From: a virus
Lineage: Duplodnaviria > Heunggongvirae > Uroviricota > Caudoviricetes
IMG/VR virus record: IMGVR_UViG_3300042975_000097
Direction: 5' to 3' (one strand)
DNA: 64,000 nucleotides
The notes beneath the pieces are model-generated. The model searched no databases, was not told the DNA's origin, and worked only from the letters and a program-made list of their open reading frames with translations. How positions within the stretch are numbered: the first letter of the stretch is position 1; each line of letters begins with the position of its first letter. Shown here piece by piece: positions 1,845 to 59,840 of the stretch. The position numbers were made by a program, and so were the translations under genes.

Positions 1845-3719
1845 TCACTTCTCGCGGGCCAGCAGTCCCTGACGCTCAAGCCCATTAACAGTGCGCCGCA
1901 CGGTCCTCACGTACGGCAACGGGTACACGGTCCCATCATCATCCGACTCATCAAGACTCGCCAGGTACACGGCACCCTTATCACCGGCCCACTCGCGGAA
2001 CCCGGCGAGCGCGGCCTCGTACTCATCATCCCCGTTCATCACGGCTACGGCATCCGCGTACACGAGCACCCGGTCACCGTGCCCGTTCGTGAGCACCATC
2101 GACCTGCCGTTAGTGACGGCCGCGGCAAGCGCCGGGCCAGCGGCCGCCAGCGATTCGGTGCTCACCACGTCATGTGTTCCATGAGCAAGCGCGATGACCC
2201 CAGCGATATCACTGGGCGCAGTGAACGCGCTGGTGAACACGTCCGCGTCATCGGCCAGCGCCTTGAAACCGACGCGGTAGTACCGCAGGTTCCCCGGCAG
2301 CGGGTCATGCTTCTTCCCATCGGCCCAGTCCTCACCAGTGAGTACACGGCGCATGCGAACCGCCGTCACGCTGCGAGCGATGCCGTTCTCCGCGCCGTCC
2401 TGCTCGTAATTATTCGTCACGAGGATTGCACGGCGATGCCCGCCATCCTCCTTGTTCAGCTCCGCGACCGCCTGTCCCGTGGTGCCGGAACCGGCGAAGA
2501 AGTCAAGGACAAGAGCATCCTTGGAAGGAGAACCTATTCTGATGATATCTTTGACGTACTTGGCCGATTTTGGTGAGGAAAACACCTTGTTTCCAAAGAT
2601 ATCCGAGAATATTCGCCCCCCGGCTGTCGTGCTATATTCCGGTCTTTCCCAGACGCTCTTTGGTTTAATGGTTCGCTGCGAACCACCTGACTCCAACCTC
2701 ATCTTTGTATAAAGCACAATACCCCCATGCTGTCTCTTTGCGACGACCTCTGATGCACTGTTAGCGATGAACGTTTCCTTTCCCCATCGCCAGCGGCCCT
2801 CTTCGCCGTTAATCTTTGGATAGACACTAAGCGCACCGTCGAAAGGCTCGGCCTCTATGCGAGATAGATCTTTCGACACATAGATCGGATAATACATCCT
2901 TGGGCGATCTGTTCGAAGCGAGTTCTTCCCACTCTTTTTCAATCCGACGAGCTTATACCTTGATATACTGTCGTGTTCTTTATACTCTGCAATCTGCTCC
3001 TCTAAGAGGGGGAACTCGGCTAACTGCACCGATTTCTCATCCTTTGCGTATACTATAAGATATTCATGTGAAGTCGCTATATGTTTGTCGTCACTACGAC
3101 CCGACCTATTATTAATCGCCGTGATGTTCGCCACGAAATTGCCCTCCCCGAACACCTCGTCCATGAGCACTCTCAGGTACGCTTGCTCGTGATCATCAAT
3201 GCTCACGAAGATCACGCCATCGTTCGTGAGCAGTTCCCGCGCGAGGACCAGTCGCGGGCGCATGAACGACAGCCACTTACTATGCCGGTACGAGTCCTCC
3301 GGGTCAACGAACCTGTCATTATACACGAAGTCCTGGTTACCCGTGTTGTACGGCGGGTCGATGTAGATCACGTTCACCTTGCCCGCGTGCGTGGCTTGGA
3401 GCATGGTCAGCGCGGTCAGGTTATCGCCCTCGATGAGCACGTGATCATCCTCGATGGCGCCGGTCTTCACCGTGGAGTGCGCGGGGTCCGCGGTGAGCAC
3501 GGGCACCTCCCCGTTCAGTAGTCTCTGCGCGTCGCCGGTCTCGGGAATGGTGTTGTACGCGAGGCCGAGGTGATGACCGATGGCGAGCAGCCGTTCCTGG
3601 TCCTTGATCGTGGCATCCTGCGCGCGTAGCCTCTCGGCCTGCGCGTCGATGATTGCTTGCAAATCGTTGGCGTTGTTGTGGTCATCAGTGTTGTTGCTTA
3701 TCATTCCCGTGTTGGTCAT
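1845..3719 (-). CDS. mod: Type III RM Mod subunit, N6-adenine DNA methyltransferase (beta class)
   Basis: Motif IV VIYIDPPYNTG precedes motif I DFFAGSGTTGQA (beta-class order); 624 aa; immediately followed by res on the same strand. Confidence 0.85.
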   Translation of the reverse strand: MTNTGMISNNTDDHNNANDLQAIIDAQAERLRAQDATIKDQERLLAIGHHLGLAYNTIPETGDAQRLLNGEVPVLTADPAHSTVKTGAIEDDHVLIEGDNLTALTMLQATHAGKVNVIYIDPPYNTGNQDFVYNDRFVDPEDSYRHSKWLSFMRPRLVLARELLTNDGVIFVSIDDHEQAYLRVLMDEVFGEGNFVANITAINNRSGRSDDKHIATSHEYLIVYAKDEKSVQLAEFPLLEEQIAEYKEHDSISRYKLVGLKKSGKNSLRTDRPRMYYPIYVSKDLSRIEAEPFDGALSVYPKINGEEGRWRWGKETFIANSASEVVAKRQHGGIVLYTKMRLESGGSQRTIKPKSVWERPEYSTTAGGRIFSDIFGNKVFSSPKSAKYVKDIIRIGSPSKDALVLDFFAGSGTTGQAVAELNKEDGGHRRAILVTNNYEQDGAENGIARSVTAVRMRRVLTGEDWADGKKHDPLPGNLRYYRVGFKALADDADVFTSAFTAPSDIAGVIALAHGTHDVVSTESLAAAGPALAAAVTNGRSMVLTNGHGDRVLVYADAVAVMNGDDEYEAALAGFREWAGDKGAVYLASLDESDDDGTVYPLPYVRTVRRTVNGLERQGLLAREK

Positions 3720-6676: not shown

Positions 6677-6830
6677 TTGACACTCCCGGGGTTGAAACCC
6701 CGGGATTCCTGCGAACTGGGTTTGCTTGGCTTCCGGTCTTTGTGAGGCCGGCATGCCAGCGGCTCCCCATCTTGAGCAGGCTATCCCCGATTGTCGGTCG
6801 GTTCCAGCTCCCCTTTTACTGTCAGGGGGT
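6677..6830 (-). ncRNA. predicted omega RNA (reRNA) of TnpB, overlapping the tnpB 3' end and the right end
   Basis: Placed from established TnpB biology (ωRNA derives from the 3' end of tnpB plus the right end). Contains the right-end hairpin. Exact 5' end not determinable here. Confidence 0.35.
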
Positions 6831-8006
6831 TTCCGCATGCAGGCGGAGCGCTTCGCCGAGGATGTTGCGTGCAGCGTTCACGTCACGGTCGTGGAGGGTA
6901 CCGCATCGTGGGCATGTCCACTCCCGGTCTTCCAGTTTCAGGCCGGTGTTCTTCCACCCGCATTCATGGCAGAGTTTGCTGGACGGGTAGAAACGGTCGA
7001 CCTGCTGGAAAACGCGACCGTACCATTCGGCCTTGTAGGCGAGCTTGTCCACGAATCCACTCCACGCGGCGCGACGGATATTGCGGTTCATGACTCGTTT
7101 GCGTGACTGCCCGCTCCTCTCATACCTGCCGTCCGCGTTCAGGCGTTTGCGTGCCTTGCGTGTCATGTTCGCCACCATGAGGGTTTCCATGCCGATGAAT
7201 TGGTTCTCTTCGATCAGCCGATGGGTCACCTGATGCTGGTAGTTGTCACGCCAGTCGCGGAGCTTCCTGTGGGCGGCTTGAAGCCGGGCTTTCTGCTTGT
7301 AATAGTTGTTGGATTGCCTGCCTGTTCCTCTCTTCCTGCGGGAGAGCTTGCGCTGCTCGCGGATAATGGCCCGTTCGAGTTGCCTCATACGCTGCGGGTA
7401 GTCGATCTTCTCGCCTGTGGATAGGATGAGGAAGTCTTTAACGCCGAGGTCGATGCCGACCTGTCCGCGTACTTGGGGTTTGGGTTGGATGTCCACGTCG
7501 AACAGGAACACGATATAGTATCTGCCGCCCTCGCGTTTGACCGTCCAACTGGATAGTTGGTCGAGCGGGTAGCGGGGTTTGCGGCGTTTGCGGATGCGGA
7601 TGGAGCCGAGTTTCTTGGACAGCGGGTACCGGCTGCCGTCCATGTGCCGGATGGGCATCGTGTTGCGGAACGATTGCACGTTGCCATGCCGGGTGGCGAA
7701 TCGTGGCCGGTTCTTCCCGTACTGTTTCTTGCGGAAGTATGCGGTTTGGGCTTTCCGGTAGTCCATGATCGCGTTGCTCAGCGAATTCGACGGGATGGGG
7801 CTGTCTTTCAACCATCCGTAACGGGTTTTCATGTCCGTCACGTTTGGGCATGTGGGACGTGGGTTCGTGTCCTTGTCGTAGGCGTTGAACGCCTCGACCT
7901 GCTGGTTGTAGACGAATCTCTTGTCCCCGAAGCATTGCTCCAATAGTGCGGCCTGTGTCTTGGACGGGGCGAACGGTATGCGTTGCGCGAACTTGCGTCT
8001 GGTCAT
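6822..8006 (-). CDS. tnpB: TnpB (OrfB) RNA-guided endonuclease, IS605 family
   Basis: 394 aa. RuvC-like motifs (GIDLGVKDF). C-terminal zinc finger CHECGWKN...CPRCGTLHDRDVNAARNI. Confidence 0.9.
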   Translation of the reverse strand: MTRRKFAQRIPFAPSKTQAALLEQCFGDKRFVYNQQVEAFNAYDKDTNPRPTCPNVTDMKTRYGWLKDSPIPSNSLSNAIMDYRKAQTAYFRKKQYGKNRPRFATRHGNVQSFRNTMPIRHMDGSRYPLSKKLGSIRIRKRRKPRYPLDQLSSWTVKREGGRYYIVFLFDVDIQPKPQVRGQVGIDLGVKDFLILSTGEKIDYPQRMRQLERAIIREQRKLSRRKRGTGRQSNNYYKQKARLQAAHRKLRDWRDNYQHQVTHRLIEENQFIGMETLMVANMTRKARKRLNADGRYERSGQSRKRVMNRNIRRAAWSGFVDKLAYKAEWYGRVFQQVDRFYPSSKLCHECGWKNTGLKLEDREWTCPRCGTLHDRDVNAARNILGEALRLHAETP

Positions 8007-8446
8007 TCCGCGTCACGCCCCTTGGCCCGCTGGTCGTCGATGCATTTGGCAACGGCCTGCTCGTTCACGCTGCCGATGCTTTCCGCGAAGTAGCTGGGCG
8101 GCCATAGGCTTCGCTCCCCGCGCCGTTTCCAGTATTCGCTTTTAAGTTCGGGACGCATGGCGCACAGACGGAGACTACTGGTGCCTTTCAACTGTTTGAC
8201 GATGCTGCTGACGCTGATCTTGAGTGGTGCGGATACGAACAGGTGGATGTGGTCGTCCAATCCGATTTCGACATGGGGGATGCGGTAACCGTGCTCCTTG
8301 GCTATCGCATGGAGGATGGTTTTCAGATCGTCGCCCACACTGTCGGCGAGGACCTTGCGACGGTATTTTGTACACCAGATGATGTGGTAGTTCAGGTTAT
8401 ACACTGAAGTTCTACCATGCGTGTACCGTTCGCCACTTGATTTCAT
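8003..8446 (-). CDS. tnpA: TnpA Y1 HUH transposase, IS200 family
   Basis: 147 aa. HUH motif DHIHLFVS. Overlaps the tnpB start by 4 nt. Confidence 0.85.
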   Translation of the reverse strand: MKSSGERYTHGRTSVYNLNYHIIWCTKYRRKVLADSVGDDLKTILHAIAKEHGYRIPHVEIGLDDHIHLFVSAPLKISVSSIVKQLKGTSSLRLCAMRPELKSEYWKRRGERSLWPPSYFAESIGSVNEQAVAKCIDDQRAKGRDAE

Positions 8447-19443: not shown

Positions 19444-22353
19444 ATGACCATGAAATACATCAGCGTGTTCAGCGGGATCGAAGCGGCCACGGCCGCATGG
19501 TCGCCGCTGGGATGGAAACCGCTCGCGTTCAGCGAGATCGAACCGTTCCCGAAGGCGGTGCTCGCCGCCCATCACCCGGACGTCCCCGACCTTGGGGACA
19601 TCACGAAGGTCGACTGGTCCCCGTACGCGGGCAAGGCCGACGTGCTCGTCGGCGGCAGCCCATGCTTCCCGGCGGGCACGCTGGTGCTCGCCGCGGACCG
19701 GTTGACGCCCATCGAGGACATCCGGGTCGGCGACATGGTGCTCACGCATCGCAACCGTTGGCGTCGTGTGACGGCGGTCGGCTCCAAGACGTCGGCGACG
19801 ATCACGGTCGCCAGCGATGGCGTTACCGTGGAGTGCACACCTAACCACCCGTTCTACGCCGAGTCCGATGAAGGCGCCGACTCTCCCCGCGAGTGGGTGC
19901 GCGCGGACGCGATGGCCGGCCGTCGCTGGCTCACCGTGAACGCGCTGGCGGACCCGCTGCCCACGCCGGCCATGGTGAGCGCCGATGGCGAGGCTGGTCG
20001 AACGTTCGAGGTCGTGGGCCGGGCGCTAGCGAGCGGCGGCGACGCGGACGTGTATCATCGCGGCTGGGCCTGGCTGTTCATCCGCGCCGACGGGCCGACG
20101 GTGCCCGCGTGGGTGTTCGCCGCTCGCGTGGAGTGGCGCGCAGCGCTGAGCCGCGGGTATCATGCGGTCGCCAGCGGTTCGCCGACCCCTGCGGTCGTGG
20201 CGGCCATGCGCATCATCGACGCCGGTCTTCACGGGAACGACGCGGATGGTGATTGGGGAAGCGTGCGATCGTTGTCACGTTCGCGCGATCATGTCAAAGT
20301 ATATAACCTGGAGGTAGAGGATGACCATAGTTACACAGCGGACGCTATCGCAGTTCACAACTGCCAGTCGTTCAGCATCGCCGGAACAAGGGCAGGGCTC
20401 AACGGGGCCAGCGGGCTCATGTGGGAGTATGTCCGGGCGGTTCGAGAACTCCGTCCTCGTTGGTTCCTCTGGGAAAATGTCCCGGGGGCGCTCTCCAGCG
20501 CGCATGGGGAGGATTTCAGATGTCTCCTCACGAGCATGGATGAGCTCGGGTATGGTCTCTCATGGCGAGTACTGGACGCGCAGTTCTTCGGAGTGGCCCA
20601 GCGACGCCGTCGCGTGTTCCTTGTCGGACATCTTGGAGACGAACGCTCCGGCGAAGTATTATTTGAGCCCGAGAGCCTGCGATGGGATACTCCGTCGAGC
20701 AGAGAAAAGAGGGAAGGCCTTACCCGAGGAACTCAGAACGGCGTTGGAGAAGCAAGCGAACCCCGACTGAACCACCATACATGGGAGATCGCCGGGAACA
20801 TCATCGGCAGGCAGGAGAAGAACGGCGGCCATCAATTAGGCATCGTCGACCCCGATAAGACCGGCGCGTTCACGCTCACGACCGCCGACAGGCACGCGAT
20901 CGCTGATTGCCTGACTCCATGGGACAATCAGGGACGCCGACTGTACCGCCCGGATGGCGTATACCCGGCATTGGATGCGAGGACCGGCAACGCGGGCGGC
21001 GACGCGCGGGCGGTGATGACGAACTACGGAAGCGACATCGCCGGCACGCTCACGCGCCGTTACGATTCATCGCCGTGCGCGGACCGCGGGCAGAACATCG
21101 TGCTCGCAGCCGGTTTCAGCGCCGGCCAATCGCAATTTGCCGGCTCGATAGGGTACGAGCACGAGATGACGCCGACGCTCAGGGCGAGCGGATCGGGAAC
21201 GAATCAAGTGCCGACGGTACTGGTGAAGACCGATGACCCGAAGCGCGATCAGCCGACGATCGCGTTCGCCGCTAACCAGCGTGATGAGGTGCGCGACCTT
21301 CATGACCTTGCGGGAACACTCGCCGCCCAGCCGGGAATCAAGGGGCAGACGTACGTTATTCCCGAGAACGCCGCCGACCCGGTGCGCGATCGAGAGGTCG
21401 AGATGCGTAACCTTCATGACCCGGCCGCCGCGATCGCCGCCGAATCAGAGGAATCCACCATCATGTGCCGCGCGGGCGGTCAGGTGAACAGCGAGACCGA
21501 CCGTGACCTGTCGCCAACGCTCACCACGCATGACGCCAAGGACCCGCATATCATATACCCCGAGCGTACCGGCGCATGCTCCGTGCTCCGTATGCGCGCG
21601 GGGTGCGCGGGCGTCGGCAAGGATGCCCTGATTCAGAACGACGCCAGCGGCACGCTCGCGTTGAACAACGATCAGACGCTGTTCCCTCCGCACGGCGGCA
21701 TCCGTCGACTCACGCCGATGGAGTGCGAGCGGCTCCAAGGATTCCCTACGAGAGTGAAGCTTGACGTTTCGGCAATGACCGAGGCCGACATCGCCGCGAA
21801 TCTGCTCGCCGGCGGCGTCATCGCCATCGACCTTGACGATGACGCCGTCCACGCGCATACGGCCGATGGCGATCAGGTGGTCACGACCCCGTTCGTGGAC
21901 GCTATCATGGACGGCGCGCATCACCGCATCCGCACGGACAGGCTCGCTTACCAGTTCGCTTTCGGCGCCATCCCCGATGGCATGGTCATCGTCCATGACG
22001 ATCATGACGAGTCGAACAATCACCCCGACAACTTGTCGCTGGCGCCCGTGGACGATGCGCCCGCGACCGATGACGGGTCGGCCGTCGATGCGCCGACGGT
22101 GACGATGCCGGTCTCGTTCACGCATGATTACATGTCATCATGGTCGACGTACCGTGATCTGGCCGCGTGGTACGGCATCGATGGCGAGCGTATCGACTCC
22201 ATCGTCAGCGAGCGCGGCTGGACGGACATCCCGTGGCATGGCAAGGATCACGCGGCCGACGCGCCGAGGTACCGCGCGCTGGGCAACTCCATGTGCGTTC
22301 AGGTGATGCGCTGGCTTGGCGAGCGCATCGCCCGCGCCGATGCCATGGACTGA
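19444..22353 (+). CDS. Dcm-type DNA cytosine-C5 methyltransferase precursor with an intein in motif IV and an HNH-like insertion between motifs IX and X
   Basis: Extein motifs: I VFSGIEAA; IV GGSP|intein|CQSFS; VI WENVPG; VIII QRRRVFLVG; IX RRLTPMECERLQGFP; X YRALGNSMCV. HNH-like VHDDHDESNNHPDNL at roughly 21960-22040. Leaderless-type promoter TTGATATAATGCCCGT-ATG. Confidence 0.8.
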   Translation: MTMKYISVFSGIEAATAAWSPLGWKPLAFSEIEPFPKAVLAAHHPDVPDLGDITKVDWSPYAGKADVLVGGSPCFPAGTLVLAADRLTPIEDIRVGDMVLTHRNRWRRVTAVGSKTSATITVASDGVTVECTPNHPFYAESDEGADSPREWVRADAMAGRRWLTVNALADPLPTPAMVSADGEAGRTFEVVGRALASGGDADVYHRGWAWLFIRADGPTVPAWVFAARVEWRAALSRGYHAVASGSPTPAVVAAMRIIDAGLHGNDADGDWGSVRSLSRSRDHVKVYNLEVEDDHSYTADAIAVHNCQSFSIAGTRAGLNGASGLMWEYVRAVRELRPRWFLWENVPGALSSAHGEDFRCLLTSMDELGYGLSWRVLDAQFFGVAQRRRRVFLVGHLGDERSGEVLFEPESLRWDTPSSREKREGLTRGTQNGVGEASEPRLNHHTWEIAGNIIGRQEKNGGHQLGIVDPDKTGAFTLTTADRHAIADCLTPWDNQGRRLYRPDGVYPALDARTGNAGGDARAVMTNYGSDIAGTLTRRYDSSPCADRGQNIVLAAGFSAGQSQFAGSIGYEHEMTPTLRASGSGTNQVPTVLVKTDDPKRDQPTIAFAANQRDEVRDLHDLAGTLAAQPGIKGQTYVIPENAADPVRDREVEMRNLHDPAAAIAAESEESTIMCRAGGQVNSETDRDLSPTLTTHDAKDPHIIYPERTGACSVLRMRAGCAGVGKDALIQNDASGTLALNNDQTLFPPHGGIRRLTPMECERLQGFPTRVKLDVSAMTEADIAANLLAGGVIAIDLDDDAVHAHTADGDQVVTTPFVDAIMDGAHHRIRTDRLAYQFAFGAIPDGMVIVHDDHDESNNHPDNLSLAPVDDAPATDDGSAVDAPTVTMPVSFTHDYMSSWSTYRDLAAWYGIDGERIDSIVSERGWTDIPWHGKDHAADAPRYRALGNSMCVQVMRWLGERIARADAMD
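19663..20361 (+). other. intein (233 aa, Hint domain, no obvious LAGLIDADG motif)
   Basis: Starts CFPAGTLVLAADRL (block A) directly after GGSP. Ends VYNLEVEDDHSYTADAIAVHN followed by C of CQSFS (blocks F/G, HN + Cys). Confidence 0.7.
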
Positions 22354-34985: not shown

Positions 34986-35600
34986 TCACTCCTTATCGAT
35001 GCGCACGCCCACGGTATGCGTGTCGGCGACGGTCGCCGACACTACCTCGATCGAGGCGAGCACGCGACGCGCGATGTCCTCCAACGCCACGCCGGGGCGT
35101 TCCGGGGCGAACGATGAATGGTACATCGGCTGGCGCTGGTCATCGGTGAGGGCGAGCCAGTCGCGCAGCGTCCTCGGCAGGTCGACGAAACCCTCGACGT
35201 ACTTGCGCGCGTCGCAATCCGGGAACGTCCTGACCATCCCGTTCGACATACCGATGTAATCGTCGCCGCCATCCACGTCCACCGCGTGCCGGAGCAGCCA
35301 GTCAGCGGTCATCGAACCGAGGACAAGCCCCGGCTCGTCGATGTCGGCCACCAAGGGGCCGTCGACGCCGGCCGCATGGAGGTCGCCGGCGATGCCGACG
35401 AGGTCGTCGATGGTCAGCGCGTTCGCGTACTCCTCGTCCGGTGCCGACGGGGCCGACGCGATGGCGTCGAACGAATCGGCGACGGCGCCGCCGTTGAAGG
35501 ATTGCTCCGACCAGCGGCCGCCGCTCGCGATCGCGTCCTCCAGCGTGACCGGACGCCGGCGTGGCGGTGTCACCGTGACGTCGCCCGCGGCATCGCTCAC
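34986..35600 (-). CDS. hypothetical protein
   Basis: 204-aa ORF with protein-like composition. Confidence 0.45.
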   Translation of the reverse strand: MSDAAGDVTVTPPRRRPVTLEDAIASGGRWSEQSFNGGAVADSFDAIASAPSAPDEEYANALTIDDLVGIAGDLHAAGVDGPLVADIDEPGLVLGSMTADWLLRHAVDVDGGDDYIGMSNGMVRTFPDCDARKYVEGFVDLPRTLRDWLALTDDQRQPMYHSSFAPERPGVALEDIARRVLASIEVVSATVADTHTVGVRIDKE

Positions 35601-35890
35601 CGGGCCACCTCGGCCATCGCTTCCACGTCATCATGGAACGTGAACCTGCGCGCCGTGGCGTCATAGGGGCCGTACGGCGTGCGCTCGTCGGCCCAATCGC
35701 CGGCGATGCCGTCGAGCAGGTTCTCTACGCCCCCGGGGACGAAAATGGAGTTCCTGCCCGGGTCAAGCCCGTAGGCCGACAGGTTCACGCTGGCGATGTC
35801 ACGCCCATCGTCCCCTTCCGCCAGCACCGCGAGCGTGTCATCCACCTGATACCGGGCGATGACGATTTCATCGCCATGAGCGTTCTTCAT
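35597..35890 (-). CDS. hypothetical protein (MKNAHGDEIVIARYQ...)
   Basis: RBS AGGAGG + AGTCAA + ATG. Overlaps the upstream stop (ATGA). Its first 26 nt are duplicated next to the IS right end. Confidence 0.45.
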   Translation of the reverse strand: MKNAHGDEIVIARYQVDDTLAVLAEGDDGRDIASVNLSAYGLDPGRNSIFVPGGVENLLDGIAGDWADERTPYGPYDATARRFTFHDDVEAMAEVAR

Positions 35891-35959
35891 TTGACTCCTC
35901 CTCAGCCATGTTTCTTTATCTCCTTCGGTTCACATTTCATCGCCATGAGCGTTCTTCAT

Positions 35960-36120
35960 TTGACTTCTCCCCACGGCTAAAACCGGGGGATTCCAAGCCC
36001 TAGTGAGACATGCGCCTCCGGCACAGCGTCCGGGTGGCGTCTTACGGTCTCATGGGATTCAGGGACAAGTCCTGCCCTGGTGAGCATGTTCACAGCCGCG
36101 TTCTTATCACGGTCCTTCAC
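35960..36120 (-). ncRNA. predicted omega RNA of TnpB (scaffold over the tnpB 3' end and right end)
   Basis: Placed by established TnpB biology. The conserved right-end sequence shared with copy 3 supports a structured 3' element. Confidence 0.35.
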
Positions 36121-37245
36121 CATTCCGCAATATCGGCAACGGTACACGCGCTCCTTTAACCCGATTGGGGGATTGGCTATCTCCCCGCATTCGGAGCAGG
36201 TCTGCGTGGTGTACGCCGGGTTGACCGGAATGAATCTACGACCGTTCTTAACGGCTTGCCAATGCAGTATTTGGATGTCCATGGCGATGGCGGCATCTTG
36301 GGCGTTACGCGCCATGGTGGTTTTCGACAGGAACTTCGGTTTGAAGTCCTCACTGGCGATGATGTCGTTGCGTTCGCACACGCGTTTCGCCCATGTGTGG
36401 GCGATGGTGAGGCGTTGCGCCGCTATGCGCTGGCAGAGTTTTCGATATTGTGTTCTCGCTTTCTTGTAGCCTTTCGACTGGTTCGGATACCTAACGCCTT
36501 TCTTATGTCTGCGTGCCATACGTCGTTGCAATCCGGCCATTTGACAGTGGCGTATCCTCTCGAATCCCATATGCGGGAAATCGTCTGGGGAGTTTTCGGA
36601 AATCTCGCCTGTCGAAAGATTCATCCCGACCGTCGAGGCGGTGGTCTCGACGCCCCAGTCAATACCGACCGCGTGTCCCGTTTCCGGGAGTGCTTTCACG
36701 TCCGTTTCGACTACGAACGAGGCGTACCAGTGTCCGTCCGGGGATTTGTATACGCGGACGCTCCTGGGTTGCGAGGGCAGTTTTCGGGACCATACAACGG
36801 GGATGAGCACTTCCTTCGGCAGTTTGAGTCGGGTTTTCCCGTCCTGCTCCACGAGCTTGAATCCGCCGATGCGATAATTGAGGGACGGCAACGTGATCTT
36901 ACGGCTCTTATACCGTGGCATTCCCGATTTGCGTTTCCTTGTGGGCGACTTGCGGTCGGAGACCGCTTTCCCTCTGGCTTGACTATAGTCTCTGACTATC
37001 TGCTGTTGGGGTACGCACGAGTGCCCGGCGAGCCATTTATCGCCGTTTCCGTCCGTTCTGCTTGCCCTGAGAAAGGTGAGGTGCTTCTGCGCCTGTGCTG
37101 CGCCGAACGTCTCGCCCCGTTCGTACCGTGCTTGGGATTCGTCCACCATACGGTTCCATACGTACCTGCATGCATCCCATTCGGCAACCAGGTATTGTTC
37201 CGCCTGCTCGCCGGGGCGCAGCCTGTACTTGTATCGAACCTTCAT
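35977..37245 (-). CDS. tnpB: TnpB RNA-guided endonuclease
   Basis: Start MKVRYKYRL (ATG 37245), preceded by TGGTATAAT. RuvC motifs, zinc finger CSECG...CRYCGMVKDRDKNAAVNM. Confidence 0.85.
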   Translation of the reverse strand: MKVRYKYRLRPGEQAEQYLVAEWDACRYVWNRMVDESQARYERGETFGAAQAQKHLTFLRASRTDGNGDKWLAGHSCVPQQQIVRDYSQARGKAVSDRKSPTRKRKSGMPRYKSRKITLPSLNYRIGGFKLVEQDGKTRLKLPKEVLIPVVWSRKLPSQPRSVRVYKSPDGHWYASFVVETDVKALPETGHAVGIDWGVETTASTVGMNLSTGEISENSPDDFPHMGFERIRHCQMAGLQRRMARRHKKGVRYPNQSKGYKKARTQYRKLCQRIAAQRLTIAHTWAKRVCERNDIIASEDFKPKFLSKTTMARNAQDAAIAMDIQILHWQAVKNGRRFIPVNPAYTTQTCSECGEIANPPIGLKERVYRCRYCGMVKDRDKNAAVNMLTRAGLVPESHETVRRHPDAVPEAHVSLGLGIPRF

Positions 37246-37477
37246 GCAAATCATTATACCACAGTACGCGCAGAACCAACACAACGCATAAGAAAGGGGC
37301 GGCTTACCCCAGTCTTAAAAGGCGGGGCTTGCGCCGCCATTGCCGGTCATATCCTCCTGATAGGTGTTATCAACAGCCGACCGGCGGCCGCCATGTACGA
37401 TGGCGATCGCCGACCGGCATGACACCAATGATAGCACGAACCGCCGACCAGTACCGCGGCGCGCCGGCGACGGGCGT

Positions 37478-45465: not shown

Positions 45466-46491
45466 TCATCTGCGTGCGGTACGTCTTTGCTGATTGTCCT
45501 TATCGAACGTCTTCCACTGTTCTATGCTTATGCTCCTGTCTATTGAGTTGACTCTTCTCGTCGCCCATTTATTGTATTCGGTGTTCTCATCGCATGCAAG
45601 CCATTGTCGGTGAAGCTGCGATGCGGTGACCGCCGTGGTTCCTGAACCTGAGAATGGATCGAGTATCATGTCTCCGTCATTGCTTGATGCAAGTATGAGT
45701 TTCCTGATGAGTTCTTCCGGTTTCTGGGTCGGGTGCGGAGTCTTTTCATGCATGCCATTGCAGGTCGTAGGTATTTCTATCACGTCCTTTGGTTTTGCCC
45801 CTCTTGGATTCGGTGTCCAGTGCTGATCATCGTTTCCATATTGTGATGAATCGGCTTGTGGATGATCCGGATATTTCAGCGTGTGATTTCCGTATGGAAT
45901 GCGTACATCATCATAATTGATGTGGCTGAAATCCTTTTTCCGAAGATGGAGGATGCTTTCATGCGATCTTCCCCAATCCTTTCCCAGGTTCGCCTTGTTC
46001 CTATAGAACCAGACCAGCCATCTGCATGAATCGAAGTATTCCATTGCGGGATGTTTGATATCCGCTAGTATTTCACTGAATCCACATACGTAGAGGCTCC
46101 CTGTTGGTTTAAGTATTCGTGACGCCTGTGAAATCCATTGCATCGACCATGATATATACTGCTCCTGTGATGCGAAATTATCCCATGCGGCTTTTCCGAT
46201 ATTGTATGGTGGATCTGCAAATACCATATCAATGCTCTCGTCCTTAACATTATGTAGCCATTGTATGCTGTCTCCGGTGAATAACGCCCCGTCTTGGAAT
46301 ACGGTTAGATCGACTGGCGGTGCTGGCCGGCATAAAAAGAATGGCGCAATGTCGAGCGGTTCGTCTTGCTGAATTTCGTCGCCTTTGACTGTTCGCCATG
46401 TAGTCATCAGGTACCTGCTTTCGTTCAAGTCTTTTATTCTTCGGTTTTCCATGATGCCATTGCCGACAAATGTCGGTGATGGCATTTGTAT
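45466..46491 (-). CDS. DNA methyltransferase, beta class (N6-adenine or N4-cytosine), orphan
   Basis: DPPYNIG (motif IV) upstream of LDPFSGSGTT (motif I). Lies in a low-GC island with no adjacent nuclease gene seen. Confidence 0.7.
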   Translation of the reverse strand: MQMPSPTFVGNGIMENRRIKDLNESRYLMTTWRTVKGDEIQQDEPLDIAPFFLCRPAPPVDLTVFQDGALFTGDSIQWLHNVKDESIDMVFADPPYNIGKAAWDNFASQEQYISWSMQWISQASRILKPTGSLYVCGFSEILADIKHPAMEYFDSCRWLVWFYRNKANLGKDWGRSHESILHLRKKDFSHINYDDVRIPYGNHTLKYPDHPQADSSQYGNDDQHWTPNPRGAKPKDVIEIPTTCNGMHEKTPHPTQKPEELIRKLILASSNDGDMILDPFSGSGTTAVTASQLHRQWLACDENTEYNKWATRRVNSIDRSISIEQWKTFDKDNQQRRTARR

Positions 46492-46606
46492 TCTCGATAT
46501 GCTGAATATGAACATGATGATTGAACTACGTATGGTGTTCCATTGAAAACAGTCCGAGCCTAGACGGACAAATTGACCGCCCGCGATCATACGCCGCGGC
46601 GCGCGG

Positions 46607-58118: not shown

Positions 58119-58274
58119 ATGGGAAGATTGAAGAAGGCGGCGCTCGCGTTGCTCGCGCTGCTCGCGGTGATGATCGGGGCGTTCGCGGCGCTGTCCGCGT
58201 ACACGATCATATGGGAACGGCGCCACCCGATGACCGGGGGGCGGCGCAAGCCCCGTCTTTTAAGACTGGGGTAA
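58119..58274 (+). CDS. possible 51-aa membrane peptide whose 3' end is supplied by the IS left end
   Basis: RBS GAGGAGG. MGRLKKAALALLALLAVMIGAFAALSAYTIIW.... The last ~15 codons lie inside the IS left end (from 58230). Confidence 0.25.
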   Translation: MGRLKKAALALLALLAVMIGAFAALSAYTIIWERRHPMTGGRRKPRLLRLG

Positions 58275-58320
58275 GCCGCCGTTTTTGATTAATCACTATT
58301 TTCGTGGTAAGATGTAAAGT

Positions 58321-59781
58321 ATGAGCCAGAAGGTACGAATCATCAGAGTCAGGCACACGGGCGCGACCGTGTACCTTGGCGACGATTCATACCACAACCA
58401 TTGCTGGACGCGCAACCCCGAACGCATCATGGACTGGCTGTGTGATGGTTGGCGCACCCGTTTCAACCAGCATCGGGAGCATCGGGTCATCCGCCGCTAC
58501 ATGGAGGGTATGGAATCCCATGAGCGCATGTGGGTGGACGTCCCCTTGGGTGGGGCGGCCGTCGGGGAGCCATGCAAGGACAGTGAGGCACGAACCCGGT
58601 GTTCTTGGCTCGCATGCATTCCCGCAGCCGTTCTCGCCAGTCCCACGCGCGTGGAGAACTCGGAATGGTACGCCGCATTGAAACGCAAGAAGAATAATGG
58701 CGGCCGTGTCCCGGGGTTCAAATCCCGCAAACACAACCCCCAGTATTTCGTATGTTGGCGCAACCAAACCAAGACGGGCAACGCCATCTACCATCAGGTG
58801 TCACGCAAGCGTGGCGTGGTCGTCATCACCGGAACCGTGAAAAAAGCATTCCGCAAGCCGGGCGAAACGGGATGCCGTTGGAGGCTCACCATTCACGTGC
58901 GCGTCAGCCAACCCGTCAGGGATTATACGAGTGTCGGGGTGAATTGGACGGAACGCACTCTGACGTTCACCAACATTCCGTCACCCATCCGGCGGGATGC
59001 CACCGGTCGGCAGACCGGCATCGACCGTGGTTGCGCCCACACATTGGCCTTGTCGAATGGGACCATGCTGGACATGCCGCAACCGTCCAAACGGGAGAAG
59101 CAAGCGTATCTGCGTCTGCAACGCAAGCTCGCCCGACAAGATGCGGTTAACAGCCGGCGTGGTGGGAAAACCGCGAAATTCCAATCGAAACGACGCAAAC
59201 TCACATTGAAGCGCATGGGTTCGATACGCAGCCGCACCAACAACCGCAAGGACGATTGGGTCGCGAAGACCACGGGCCGACTGGTCGAAGAATACGATCT
59301 CATCGCCTTGGAAGCGTTGAACACCCGGCAAATGACCCGCAAGCCGAAACCGAAACAGGACCCCAATCGCAAGGGGCGCTACCTGCGCAATGGTGCGGCG
59401 GCCAAAGCGGGATTGAACCGTAGTATCCTCAACAACCGTTGGGCGGATATCCAGAGCAAACTCGAATACAAGACCCGTCTCGCCGGAACCCGACTCATAC
59501 TGATCGACCCGGCGTACACGTCCCAGACCTGCAACCGTTGCGGTCATGTCGCAAAGGAGAACCGCGAGAGCCAAGCGGTCTTCCAATGCATCAACTGCGG
59601 CAACAAGGACAATGCGGACATCAACGCGGCCAAGAACATCCTCGACCGCGCGACACACACAACCGGCATGGACGATGCCGAGGGCGTGGAGGGACACGCC
59701 ACCCGTGAAACCTATGTTTCATGGGAAGGTCCCGTTGAAACGCCAACCCCTGCCACACGTATCGGAAGGCTCCTCCACTGA
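58321..59781 (+). CDS. tnpB: TnpB RNA-guided endonuclease
   Basis: 486 aa. GIDRGCAHT. EALN. CNRCGH...CINCGNKDNADINAAKNI. Upstream -10 TGGTAAGAT. Confidence 0.9.
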   Translation: MSQKVRIIRVRHTGATVYLGDDSYHNHCWTRNPERIMDWLCDGWRTRFNQHREHRVIRRYMEGMESHERMWVDVPLGGAAVGEPCKDSEARTRCSWLACIPAAVLASPTRVENSEWYAALKRKKNNGGRVPGFKSRKHNPQYFVCWRNQTKTGNAIYHQVSRKRGVVVITGTVKKAFRKPGETGCRWRLTIHVRVSQPVRDYTSVGVNWTERTLTFTNIPSPIRRDATGRQTGIDRGCAHTLALSNGTMLDMPQPSKREKQAYLRLQRKLARQDAVNSRRGGKTAKFQSKRRKLTLKRMGSIRSRTNNRKDDWVAKTTGRLVEEYDLIALEALNTRQMTRKPKPKQDPNRKGRYLRNGAAAKAGLNRSILNNRWADIQSKLEYKTRLAGTRLILIDPAYTSQTCNRCGHVAKENRESQAVFQCINCGNKDNADINAAKNILDRATHTTGMDDAEGVEGHATRETYVSWEGPVETPTPATRIGRLLH

Positions 59782-59840
59782 GGAACGTGTCCCATACGCG
59801 ACAGGAATCCCCCCGGCTTCAGCCGTGGGGAGGAAGTCAA
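59650..59840 (+). ncRNA. predicted omega RNA of TnpB (3' end of tnpB plus right end)
   Basis: Conserved right-end segment shared with the element at 35960. Confidence 0.35.

Follow-up and report, generated by a model that had tools for sequence, protein, structure and literature searches.

A duplicated gene start at the right end of a tnpB-only IS200/IS605 element, read as a one-off repair scar

The viral record IMGVR_UViG_3300042975_000097 (Caudoviricetes), whose 64,000 nucleotides (nt) are referred to below as the window, carries on its minus strand an insertion sequence (IS) of the IS200/IS605 family that encodes TnpB and no TnpA and lies directly upstream of a gene for a protein of 97 amino acids (aa). 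At the junction between the right end of the IS and this gene, the minus-strand 26-mer ATGAAGAACGCTCATGGCGATGAAAT is present twice, at plus-strand positions 35934-35959, next to the IS, and 35865-35890, at the head of the gene; each copy has AGTCAA directly 5' of it. The features of the locus, including the transposon-associated motif (TAM) of the IS and a region resembling the guide RNA (ωRNA) of TnpB, are as follows.

35597-35890, minus strand: gene for the 97-aa protein, translationally coupled to the 204-aa open reading frame (ORF) at 34986-35600 (homologous protein clusters)
35865-35890, minus strand: working start of this gene
35865-35904, minus strand: gene-proximal repeat copy (repeat finder, comparison with right ends)
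35891-35904, minus strand: 14 nt derived from the right end, TGAGGAGGAGTCAA, now acting as Shine-Dalgarno sequence
35905-35933, minus strand: filler of 29 nt, GTGAACCGAAGGAGATAAAGAAACATGGC, unique in the window and absent from all IS-free alleles
35930-35959, minus strand: stub ORF, MKNAHGDEM and a stop, made of the original start codon and 8 codons (translation)
35934-35959, minus strand: original first 26 nt of the gene, predicted guide template
35934-35973, minus strand: IS-proximal repeat copy (repeat finder; in IS-free alleles TGAC stands directly before the 26-mer)
35960-35973, minus strand: the part of the IS-proximal copy that is the true right-end terminus
35960-36112, minus strand: ωRNA-like structured region over the 3' end of tnpB and the right end (RNAalifold covariation)
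35960-37345, minus strand: IS200/IS605-family element without tnpA, 1,386 bp, from left end CGGCAATGG... to right end ...GGGGAGAAGTCAA (related copies elsewhere and IS-free alleles)
35969-35989, minus strand: right-end hairpin CCCCCGG-TTTTA-GCCG(T)GGGG, in which one T is bulged (no variation among 28 aligned copies)
35977-37245, minus strand: tnpB, 422 aa from the ATG, with the Pfam domains HTH_OrfB_IS605, OrfB_IS605 and Cas12f1-like_TNB (PF12323, PF01385, PF07282)
37307-37327, minus strand: left-end subterminal imperfect palindrome CCCCGCC-TTTTAA-GAC(T)GGGG with an extra-helical T (read from the sequence, conserved in related copies)
37346-37349, minus strand: TAM, TGAC (ATGAC with the preceding base), abutting the left end (NTGAC before the left end elsewhere; IS-free contigs L025/26)
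37353-37358, minus strand: native Shine-Dalgarno sequence AGGAGG, with the IS now between it and the gene (IS-free alleles)

The repeat finder places the two copies within a direct repeat of 40 nt, 38 of them identical (35865-35904 and 35934-35973; 39/40 in the sister contigs L001-L003), with an exact core of 32 nt that occurs in two places only and for which none of 100 dinucleotide shuffles gave a match. The duplication of 26 nt, the AGTCAA before it and the ORF at 35597-35890 are thus found as the original prediction had claimed, except that the distance between the copies, given there as 64 bp, measures 69 bp from start to start, with 43 nt between the 26-mers. The same prediction took the repeat to be shared between IS flank and gene start; this holds for the 26 nt, but the repeat also reaches 14 nt into the right end of the IS (TGGGGAGAAGTCAA versus TGAGGAGGAGTCAA). 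The duplicated 40 nt therefore run from -14 to +26 around the junction of right end and flank, and the copy has its left limit at the bulged T, within the 3' arm of the hairpin at this end. The minus-strand order of the segments is ...CCGTGGGGAGAAGTCAA, ATGAAGAACGCTCATGGCGATGAAAT, GTGAACCGAAGGAGATAAAGAAACATGGC, TGAGGAGGAGTCAA, ATGAAGAACGCTCATGGCGATGAAAT, CGTC... The reading that we favour, with a rough probability of 0.55, is that the repeat arose once, as a repair scar, and is not a target of TnpB.

This reading depends on the state of the site before the IS arrived. Exact look-ups of the 97-aa protein and of its homologues with 86-98% identity yielded 21 further contigs of the locus, three of which (L001-L003) carry the IS together with the same 69-bp arrangement. 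The other 18, which represent eight haplotypes, are IS-free and have a single 26-mer, no filler and no repeat; comparison with the empty site, which the original prediction had proposed, hence finds the duplication in 0 of 18 IS-free contigs. In these contigs, the RNA-ligase gene, or what a deletion has left of it, precedes a stretch of ~130 nt and then ...AGGAGGAT(A)-NNNN-ATGAAGAACGCTCA..., and all IS-free alleles have AGGAGG 6-7 nt upstream of the ATG. The IS-free contigs closest to the window at the junction, L025/26, read GGAGGATATGAC followed directly by ATGAAGAACGCTCATGGTGATGAAATCGTC, that is, they start with ATGAAGAACGCTCATGG... after the junction (ATGAAG). In the window, the left-end flank ends in ...GGAGGATATGAC and the right-end flank begins with ATGAAGAACGCTCATGGCGATGAAAT. 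Comparison of these flanks places the insertion precisely between the TAM and the start codon; as the aligned alleles show, the IS entered at AGGAGG-ATA-TGAC/ATG, between the native Shine-Dalgarno sequence and the start codon of the 97-aa gene and in the orientation of the gene. The IS-proximal copy, in the same alignment, is evidently the original head of the gene.

Relative to the empty allele, the segment from GTGAACC... to the second ...GATGAAAT is an insertion of 69 bp that consists of the 29-nt filler, 14 nt from the right end of the IS and 26 nt of gene head. The 14 nt of TGAGGAGGAGTCAA match the invariant right-end terminus at 12 of 14 positions in the window and at 13 of 14 in L001-L003, where the right end reads GGGGAGGAGTCAA; the IS-free alleles have an (A)TATGAC-type sequence at this position. 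The IS-derived bases show that the copy was made after the insertion, with an occupied allele as template. Together with the lack of the repeat in the IS-free contigs, these templated bases favour what the original prediction had offered as a fallback, namely a scar of homing or repair. They also leave hardly any room for a duplication that is older than the IS and unrelated to it: such an origin could be proposed a priori, but it is at odds both with the IS-free contigs and with the presence of 14 nt of the invariant IS terminus in the repeat.

Two simpler origins were considered and rejected. In a simple tandem duplication the spacer would continue the gene, but the 29 nt are unrelated to nt 27-55 of the gene. 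In the case of an older right-end remnant, more of the right end would be expected, but the resemblance is confined to the last 14 nt; true right ends have ~38 nt in common, the hairpin among them.

The 1,455-bp difference between the occupied and the empty allele can also be phased as one insert ending ...GGAGGAGTCAA. In that case, the IS and 69 bp of foreign flank would have moved as a unit to TGAC/ATG by means of a pseudo-right-end, and if excision took place at the second TCAA, the exact wild-type site would be regained. Such a composite transposition is nevertheless very improbable, given that the foreign flank would have to start with the same 26 nt as the new target, that the second TCAA lacks the right-end hairpin and that the 69-bp segment was found nowhere else among the comparison loci or in the viral and metagenome scans.

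Related elements were recovered by protein-guided and pattern scans (scan right-end pattern ...CCCCCGGYTTTAGCCGTGGGGAGRAGTCAA), and 31 independent insertions of such elements fix the right end ...GGGGAGAAGTCAA. At 29 distinct insertion sites that match the right-end pattern, the sequences diverge straight after TCAA, as they do at two more sites of the same tnpA-less element; the last base of the IS is therefore plus-strand position 35960, and the terminus lies where the original prediction had put it. At the other end, NTGAC precedes the conserved left end C(G)NNAATGGCGGCGCAAGCCCC... at 12 different sites, from which it follows that the TAM is TGAC and that the IS spans 35960-37345, in agreement with the TAM candidates named beforehand at 37350 and 58230. 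When empty and occupied alleles are compared, there is no target-site duplication at the IS ends. The minimum-free-energy fold of the left-end palindrome is not decisive; the right-end hairpin folds as DNA with -7.9 kcal/mol (z = -2.0) and is directly followed by a 9-nt linker, AGAAGTCAA, which ends in TCAA.

The window copy lacks a Y1 (HUH) TnpA. In relatives that are ~85% identical, a divergent Y1 transposase is encoded between the left end and tnpB (Y1_Tnp, E = 2e-41), and, judging from this comparison, the window copy is clearly a non-autonomous derivative of such a tnpA-carrying relative. The internal deletion fused the 3' end of tnpA to the promoter region of tnpB, and the same deletion junction is found at three or more sites (this locus, L064 and L065-L068), which indicates that the tnpB-only derivative is mobilised in trans. 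In L064 (2899-4286), the same tnpA-deleted element is flanked, on a bacterial chromosome, by a block of genes on the gyrA side and by sigma-70/ligA; this copy differs from the window IS at 5 of 1,386 nt (99.6% identity). By its sequence features, the element can be classified as a new non-autonomous member of the IS200/IS605 TnpB elements with a TGAC TAM and an IS608-like TCAA right end.

Ends of this type are also found in other contexts. A second TnpB element of the window (58235-59840, plus strand), with the TAM ATGAC at 58230-58234, has a left end, a right-end hairpin and a TCAA terminus very similar to those of the first, and its 486-aa TnpB is only 27% identical to the first TnpB, so that one type of transposon end is common to two distant TnpB lineages. 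A third IS605-type unit (6822-8446, minus strand) consists of a Y1 transposase-like ORF (8003-8446; 29% identical to the TnpA of L008, tblastn, E = 1e-17) and a putative TnpB-like ORF of 394 aa (6822-8006); as a source of TnpA in trans, this unit is possible but unproven. The terminal ~38 nt of the right end (GAAT-CCCCCGGCTTTAGCCGTGGGGAGRAGTCAA) are joined to unrelated upstream sequences in 11 contigs (L033, L034, L041, L042, L044, L046, L047, L049, L056, L057 and L063). These detached right ends suggest either a TnpA-recognition module common to different TnpB lineages or mini-elements without cargo. In L045, a second AGTCAA follows straight after the right end (...GAAGTCAA, then AGTCAAATC), forming a 6-nt tandem repeat of the terminus.

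The TnpB protein aligns over its full length with TnpB of ISDra2 (8BF8/8EXA; E = 5e-24) and retains the Asp of GIDWG, the Glu of ASEDF, the Asp of DRDKN and the CxxC...CxxC motif, so that, by these residues, it looks catalytically intact. An exact look-up of the 390-aa TnpB of the window returned no record; relatives were reached through protein clusters, the nearest named one, from Bifidobacterium adolescentis, being 58% identical. The last 120-150 nt of the IS have a conserved fold of 34 pairs, 14 of them with compensatory changes (RNAalifold, 15 copies). In the alignment, 94.7% of the cells pair in this fold compared with 37-53% when the partners are slid, and none of 500 shuffles reached the observed score. 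A single-sequence RNA fold from the 3' end of tnpB through the repeat is no better than those of shuffled sequences (z = -0.5). No family matched in an Rfam scan of the window at gathering thresholds, and the support for an ωRNA accordingly comes from covariation. The modelled structure fits an ωRNA scaffold that ends at the right-end terminus. For ISDra2, TnpB uses ~16 nt of the right-end flank as guide (PMC8612924), and given the intact TnpB residues and the conserved fold ending at the right end, assignment of a guide here is reasonable as well: by analogy, the predicted guide would comprise ~16 nt of the right-end flank and would match both copies of the repeat.

This match should not make the gene a target. 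Cleavage of double-stranded DNA by ISDra2 TnpB requires both the TAM and the target and occurs 15-21 bp from the TAM (PMC8612924). The guide match at the gene-proximal copy is preceded by GTCAA, the terminal motif of the right end, and not by TGAC or NTGAC; without the TAM, this copy, like the occupied site itself, would not be licensed for double-stranded cleavage. The view that this TnpB is aimed at the neighbouring gene is therefore left without support, since the flank is the original gene start and the second match has no TAM. Of the original prediction, one part stands on this point: the guide is expected to come from the right-end flank, and this flank is identical to the gene's first 26 nt. 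The part that makes the gene a target is not supported. To our knowledge, every IS200/IS605 TnpB matches its own flank in the same way.

A repeated flank is also not a feature of these elements in general. At 28 other insertion sites with the right-end pattern, no repeat of the flank occurs within 470 nt and matches reach 8-11 nt at most, and inspection revealed no flank repeat at two further sites of the tnpA-less element (L064, L065-68) or at the second TnpB element of the window. Functional targeting, in which TnpB with its ωRNA would bind or cut the gene start, by repression as in TldR or by cutting of single strands, could draw on the 26 nt at the gene start, which match the predicted guide perfectly, and on the in vitro cleavage of matching single-stranded DNA by ISDra2 TnpB without a TAM (PMC8612924). 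It is very unlikely all the same: the five nt before the match are GTCAA and not NTGAC, TnpB keeps all RuvC residues, unlike the nuclease-dead TldR, the guide has the same sense as the mRNA and cannot pair with it, and a second match is found at 0 of 30 other insertion sites.

The scenario that we consider for the repair scar would begin with a non-autonomous TnpB element inserting 3' of TGAC, between the Shine-Dalgarno sequence and the ATG, so that the first 26 nt of the gene would become the right-end flank and thereby the expected source of the guide. Later, a break or a replication accident would have occurred inside the 40-nt stretch that spans the junction of right end and flank. This stretch holds the predicted nicking point of TnpA after TCAA as well as the zone 15-21 bp beyond it, which, by analogy with ISDra2, would be the cut zone of TnpB. 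Repair would have used an IS-occupied copy, on an IS-bearing homologue, as template; synthesis from the right end would have lengthened one end by 26 nt of gene sequence, and the other, starting in the gene, would have gained 14 nt of the right end before synthesis halted in the 3' arm of the hairpin. Had the two ends then been joined with 29 nt of filler instead of annealing, the 69-bp insertion would result. The product would be a 9-codon stub beside the IS, serving as guide template and, once the IS excises, as target of TnpB, and an intact gene 69 bp downstream with a Shine-Dalgarno sequence derived from the right end. After excision, the donor joint of TGAC and stub would still be cleavable, and a cut would hit the stub and not the gene.

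Comparison of the alleles shows directly where the IS inserted, in which order the events took place, that the copy contains bases of the IS, that no TAM precedes it and that it is a single occurrence. The break-repair mechanism, and which enzyme, if any, broke the DNA, are inferred; nicking by TnpA, TAM-independent cleavage of single strands or a cut at the vacated site during homing are all possible. Several points weigh against the scenario. A TAM-dependent cut by TnpB is not expected on an IS-occupied molecule, and the break could equally have been a TnpA nick, a cut in single-stranded DNA that needs no TAM, or an unrelated error of replication. The four IS-bearing contigs amount to two haplotypes with one common scar and hence to a single event, and among the contigs of the locus there is no intermediate in which the IS is present and the scar absent, or the reverse. 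No source of the filler was found in the window, nor one of at least 11 nt in the comparison loci. The 3' end of the ωRNA is here a predicted one.

Outside the locus, exact scans of viral and metagenome sequences for the filler gave no match, which is weak evidence considering that the metagenome collection evidently lacks the JGI samples of the locus; near-identity DNA searches with the region in phage and plasmid collections gave no match either.

How the scar was retained is a separate question, which bears on the gene itself. The 97-aa protein has no Pfam or PHROG match; it has seven homologous clusters with 86-98% identity, and in all four comparisons made the synonymous codon differences of its gene are at least as many as the non-synonymous ones. 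At the gene-proximal start there is a strong Shine-Dalgarno sequence, GAGGAGG, at native-like spacing, and the stub is ended by a TGA created at the filler junction. No promoter or terminator was found in the patch. The patch might thus have been kept by selection, as it moves the Shine-Dalgarno sequence and the ATG out of the footprint of TnpB. With the start codon against the ωRNA scaffold, inside the guide segment that TnpB binds and trims, translation would have been hampered, and the new head would make expression of the gene independent of the presence of the IS. This explanation concerns persistence of the scar and is compatible with its origin by repair. It is in line with the conservation of the gene, the strong new ribosome-binding site, the closed stub ORF and the maintenance of the arrangement in two haplotypes whose IS bodies differ by 4%. 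However, the right end already offers a Shine-Dalgarno-like sequence, GGGGAGGAG, at the same spacing to the original ATG, so that a new ribosome-binding site is not obviously needed; moreover, the patch holds no promoter-like site, and only one event is involved. Selective retention is accordingly a possibility that we regard as unlikely.

The variation around the IS has features that homing could leave. To the left of the IS, 4.5 kb of the window and of L001 differ at 3 positions; to its right, the first 472 nt, which include the scar, are identical. The IS bodies themselves (window 35960-37345 versus L001 4546-5931) differ at ~52 sites (4%), from nt 3 of the IS to 6 nt before its right end; the derived states are split 26/26, and the codon differences comprise 22 synonymous and 25 non-synonymous ones. 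As judged from these sequences, two established lineages of the IS appear to occupy one site in identical flanks. This suggests an exchange limited to the cassette, as from homing or from excision and re-insertion, although an assembly artefact may contribute. As the sole cause of the IS-limited divergence, an assembly chimera is unlikely, considering that sites 3 nt and 6 nt from the junctions differ too.

The IS-free alleles (L016-L032, L069) have TTGAC, ATGAC, ATAAC, ATCAA or TTGGC at the position of the TAM, and none of the eight haplotypes combines an intact TGAC with a perfect match to guide positions 1-20. Those with a perfect guide match carry ATAAC or ATCAA, and these mutated-TAM haplotypes include all IS-free contigs of the three samples that hold IS-bearing contigs. 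The TGAC-intact haplotypes come from other samples and have a mismatch at position 18, with or without one at position 15; in L025/26 and L069, the target stands behind ATGAC and has a single mismatch, at position 18. Variation is seen in three of the four TAM columns, compared with 25% of columns overall. As a signal of homing, this pattern of putative TAM mutations, seen in only eight related haplotypes, is suggestive only. The ATCAA variant ends in TCAA, the terminal motif of the right end, and the haplotype that carries it (L027-30) switches parental type exactly there.

Taken together, cassette exchange, surviving TAM mutants and a scar that acts as decoy would make the locus a natural record of homing pressure by TnpB between co-resident mobile elements, an interpretation that we put forward as doubtful. 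If it is true, the real gene start is TAM-less and immune to TnpB, as an adaptation of a host gene to an RNA-guided transposon nuclease, and the original gene start, once targeted, is now a disposable decoy.

Among characterized systems, the element is closest to the ISDra2/IS608-type members of IS200/IS605 (ISDra2 TnpB: PDB 8BF8/8EXA/8H1J), with which it shares the TnpB domain set and the RuvC and Zn-finger motifs, subterminal hairpins that contain a bulged T, a short TAM with insertion on its 3' side and no duplication of the target, a structured RNA over the 3' end of tnpB and the right end, and relatives that carry a Y1 TnpA. The right end of IS608 also finishes in TCAA. Unlike in these elements, the TAM is TGAC and not TTGAT (ISDra2) or TTAC (IS608), tnpA is divergent from tnpB in the relatives and deleted here, and the match to ISDra2 TnpB is remote. 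With both ends and tnpB, no transposase and mobilisation in trans, the element also resembles the IS1341-type tnpB-only elements, from which it differs in its clear descent, by internal deletion, from a ~85% identical relative with tnpA. TldR proteins are nuclease-dead, TnpB-like repressors whose guides match the 5' region of a neighbouring gene. The present element has a TnpB-family protein and a guide match of this kind, whereas its RuvC residues are intact, the match has no TAM and the transposon ends are normal; an intact RuvC site and the lack of a TAM thus set the element apart from TldR.

In keeping with the published model of TnpB homing, the empty allele consists of the TAM and the right-end flank and is a predicted substrate of TnpB, and the IS-limited divergence in identical flanks and the TAM-mutant empty alleles are as homing pressure would give. 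In contrast to this model, which predicts scarless products, an imprecise product with a templated insertion became fixed here. Scars of synthesis-dependent end joining, or of co-conversion by homing endonucleases, have a short repeat around the break, filler between the copies, and both copies templated from an intact homologue. Most records of synthesis-dependent end joining that leaves templated insertions come from eukaryotes. The present locus resembles such scars in having a direct repeat around the presumed break and filler between the copies.

Some of the IS-free contigs have a further rearrangement in the neighbouring gene: in L016/L017 and L027-L030, the RNA-ligase gene is deleted between two GTCGGCGGTT repeats, one in codons 30-35 and the other in the downstream intergenic region, leaving the first ~34 codons. 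Elsewhere, the window encodes a 969-aa C5 cytosine methylase that is interrupted by an intein (Hint domains) and contains an HNH domain (19444-22353, plus strand) and two N6/N4 methylases (1845-3719 and 45466-46590, both minus strand). There are many orphan methylases and no tRNAs; PHROGs recognises the RNA ligase only, and the majority of the remaining ORFs match no family. Overall, the replicon resembles a large phage or a plasmid-like element whose host would be a high-GC gut bacterium.

As it stands, the locus documents a single event in an element of a known, ordinary type. In nature, TnpB is proposed to cleave the donor site that the transposon has left and thereby to cause the transposon to be copied back in; this role rests mainly on reconstituted assays, which predict scarless products. 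Here, occupied, vacant and TAM-mutant alleles and an imprecise product are found together in the same metagenomes, and the locus could be used as a natural test of homing, of escape by TAM mutation and of the fidelity of repair. It also calls for caution in automated prediction of guide targets, because a perfect second match to a guide may be a TAM-less local copy left by repair.

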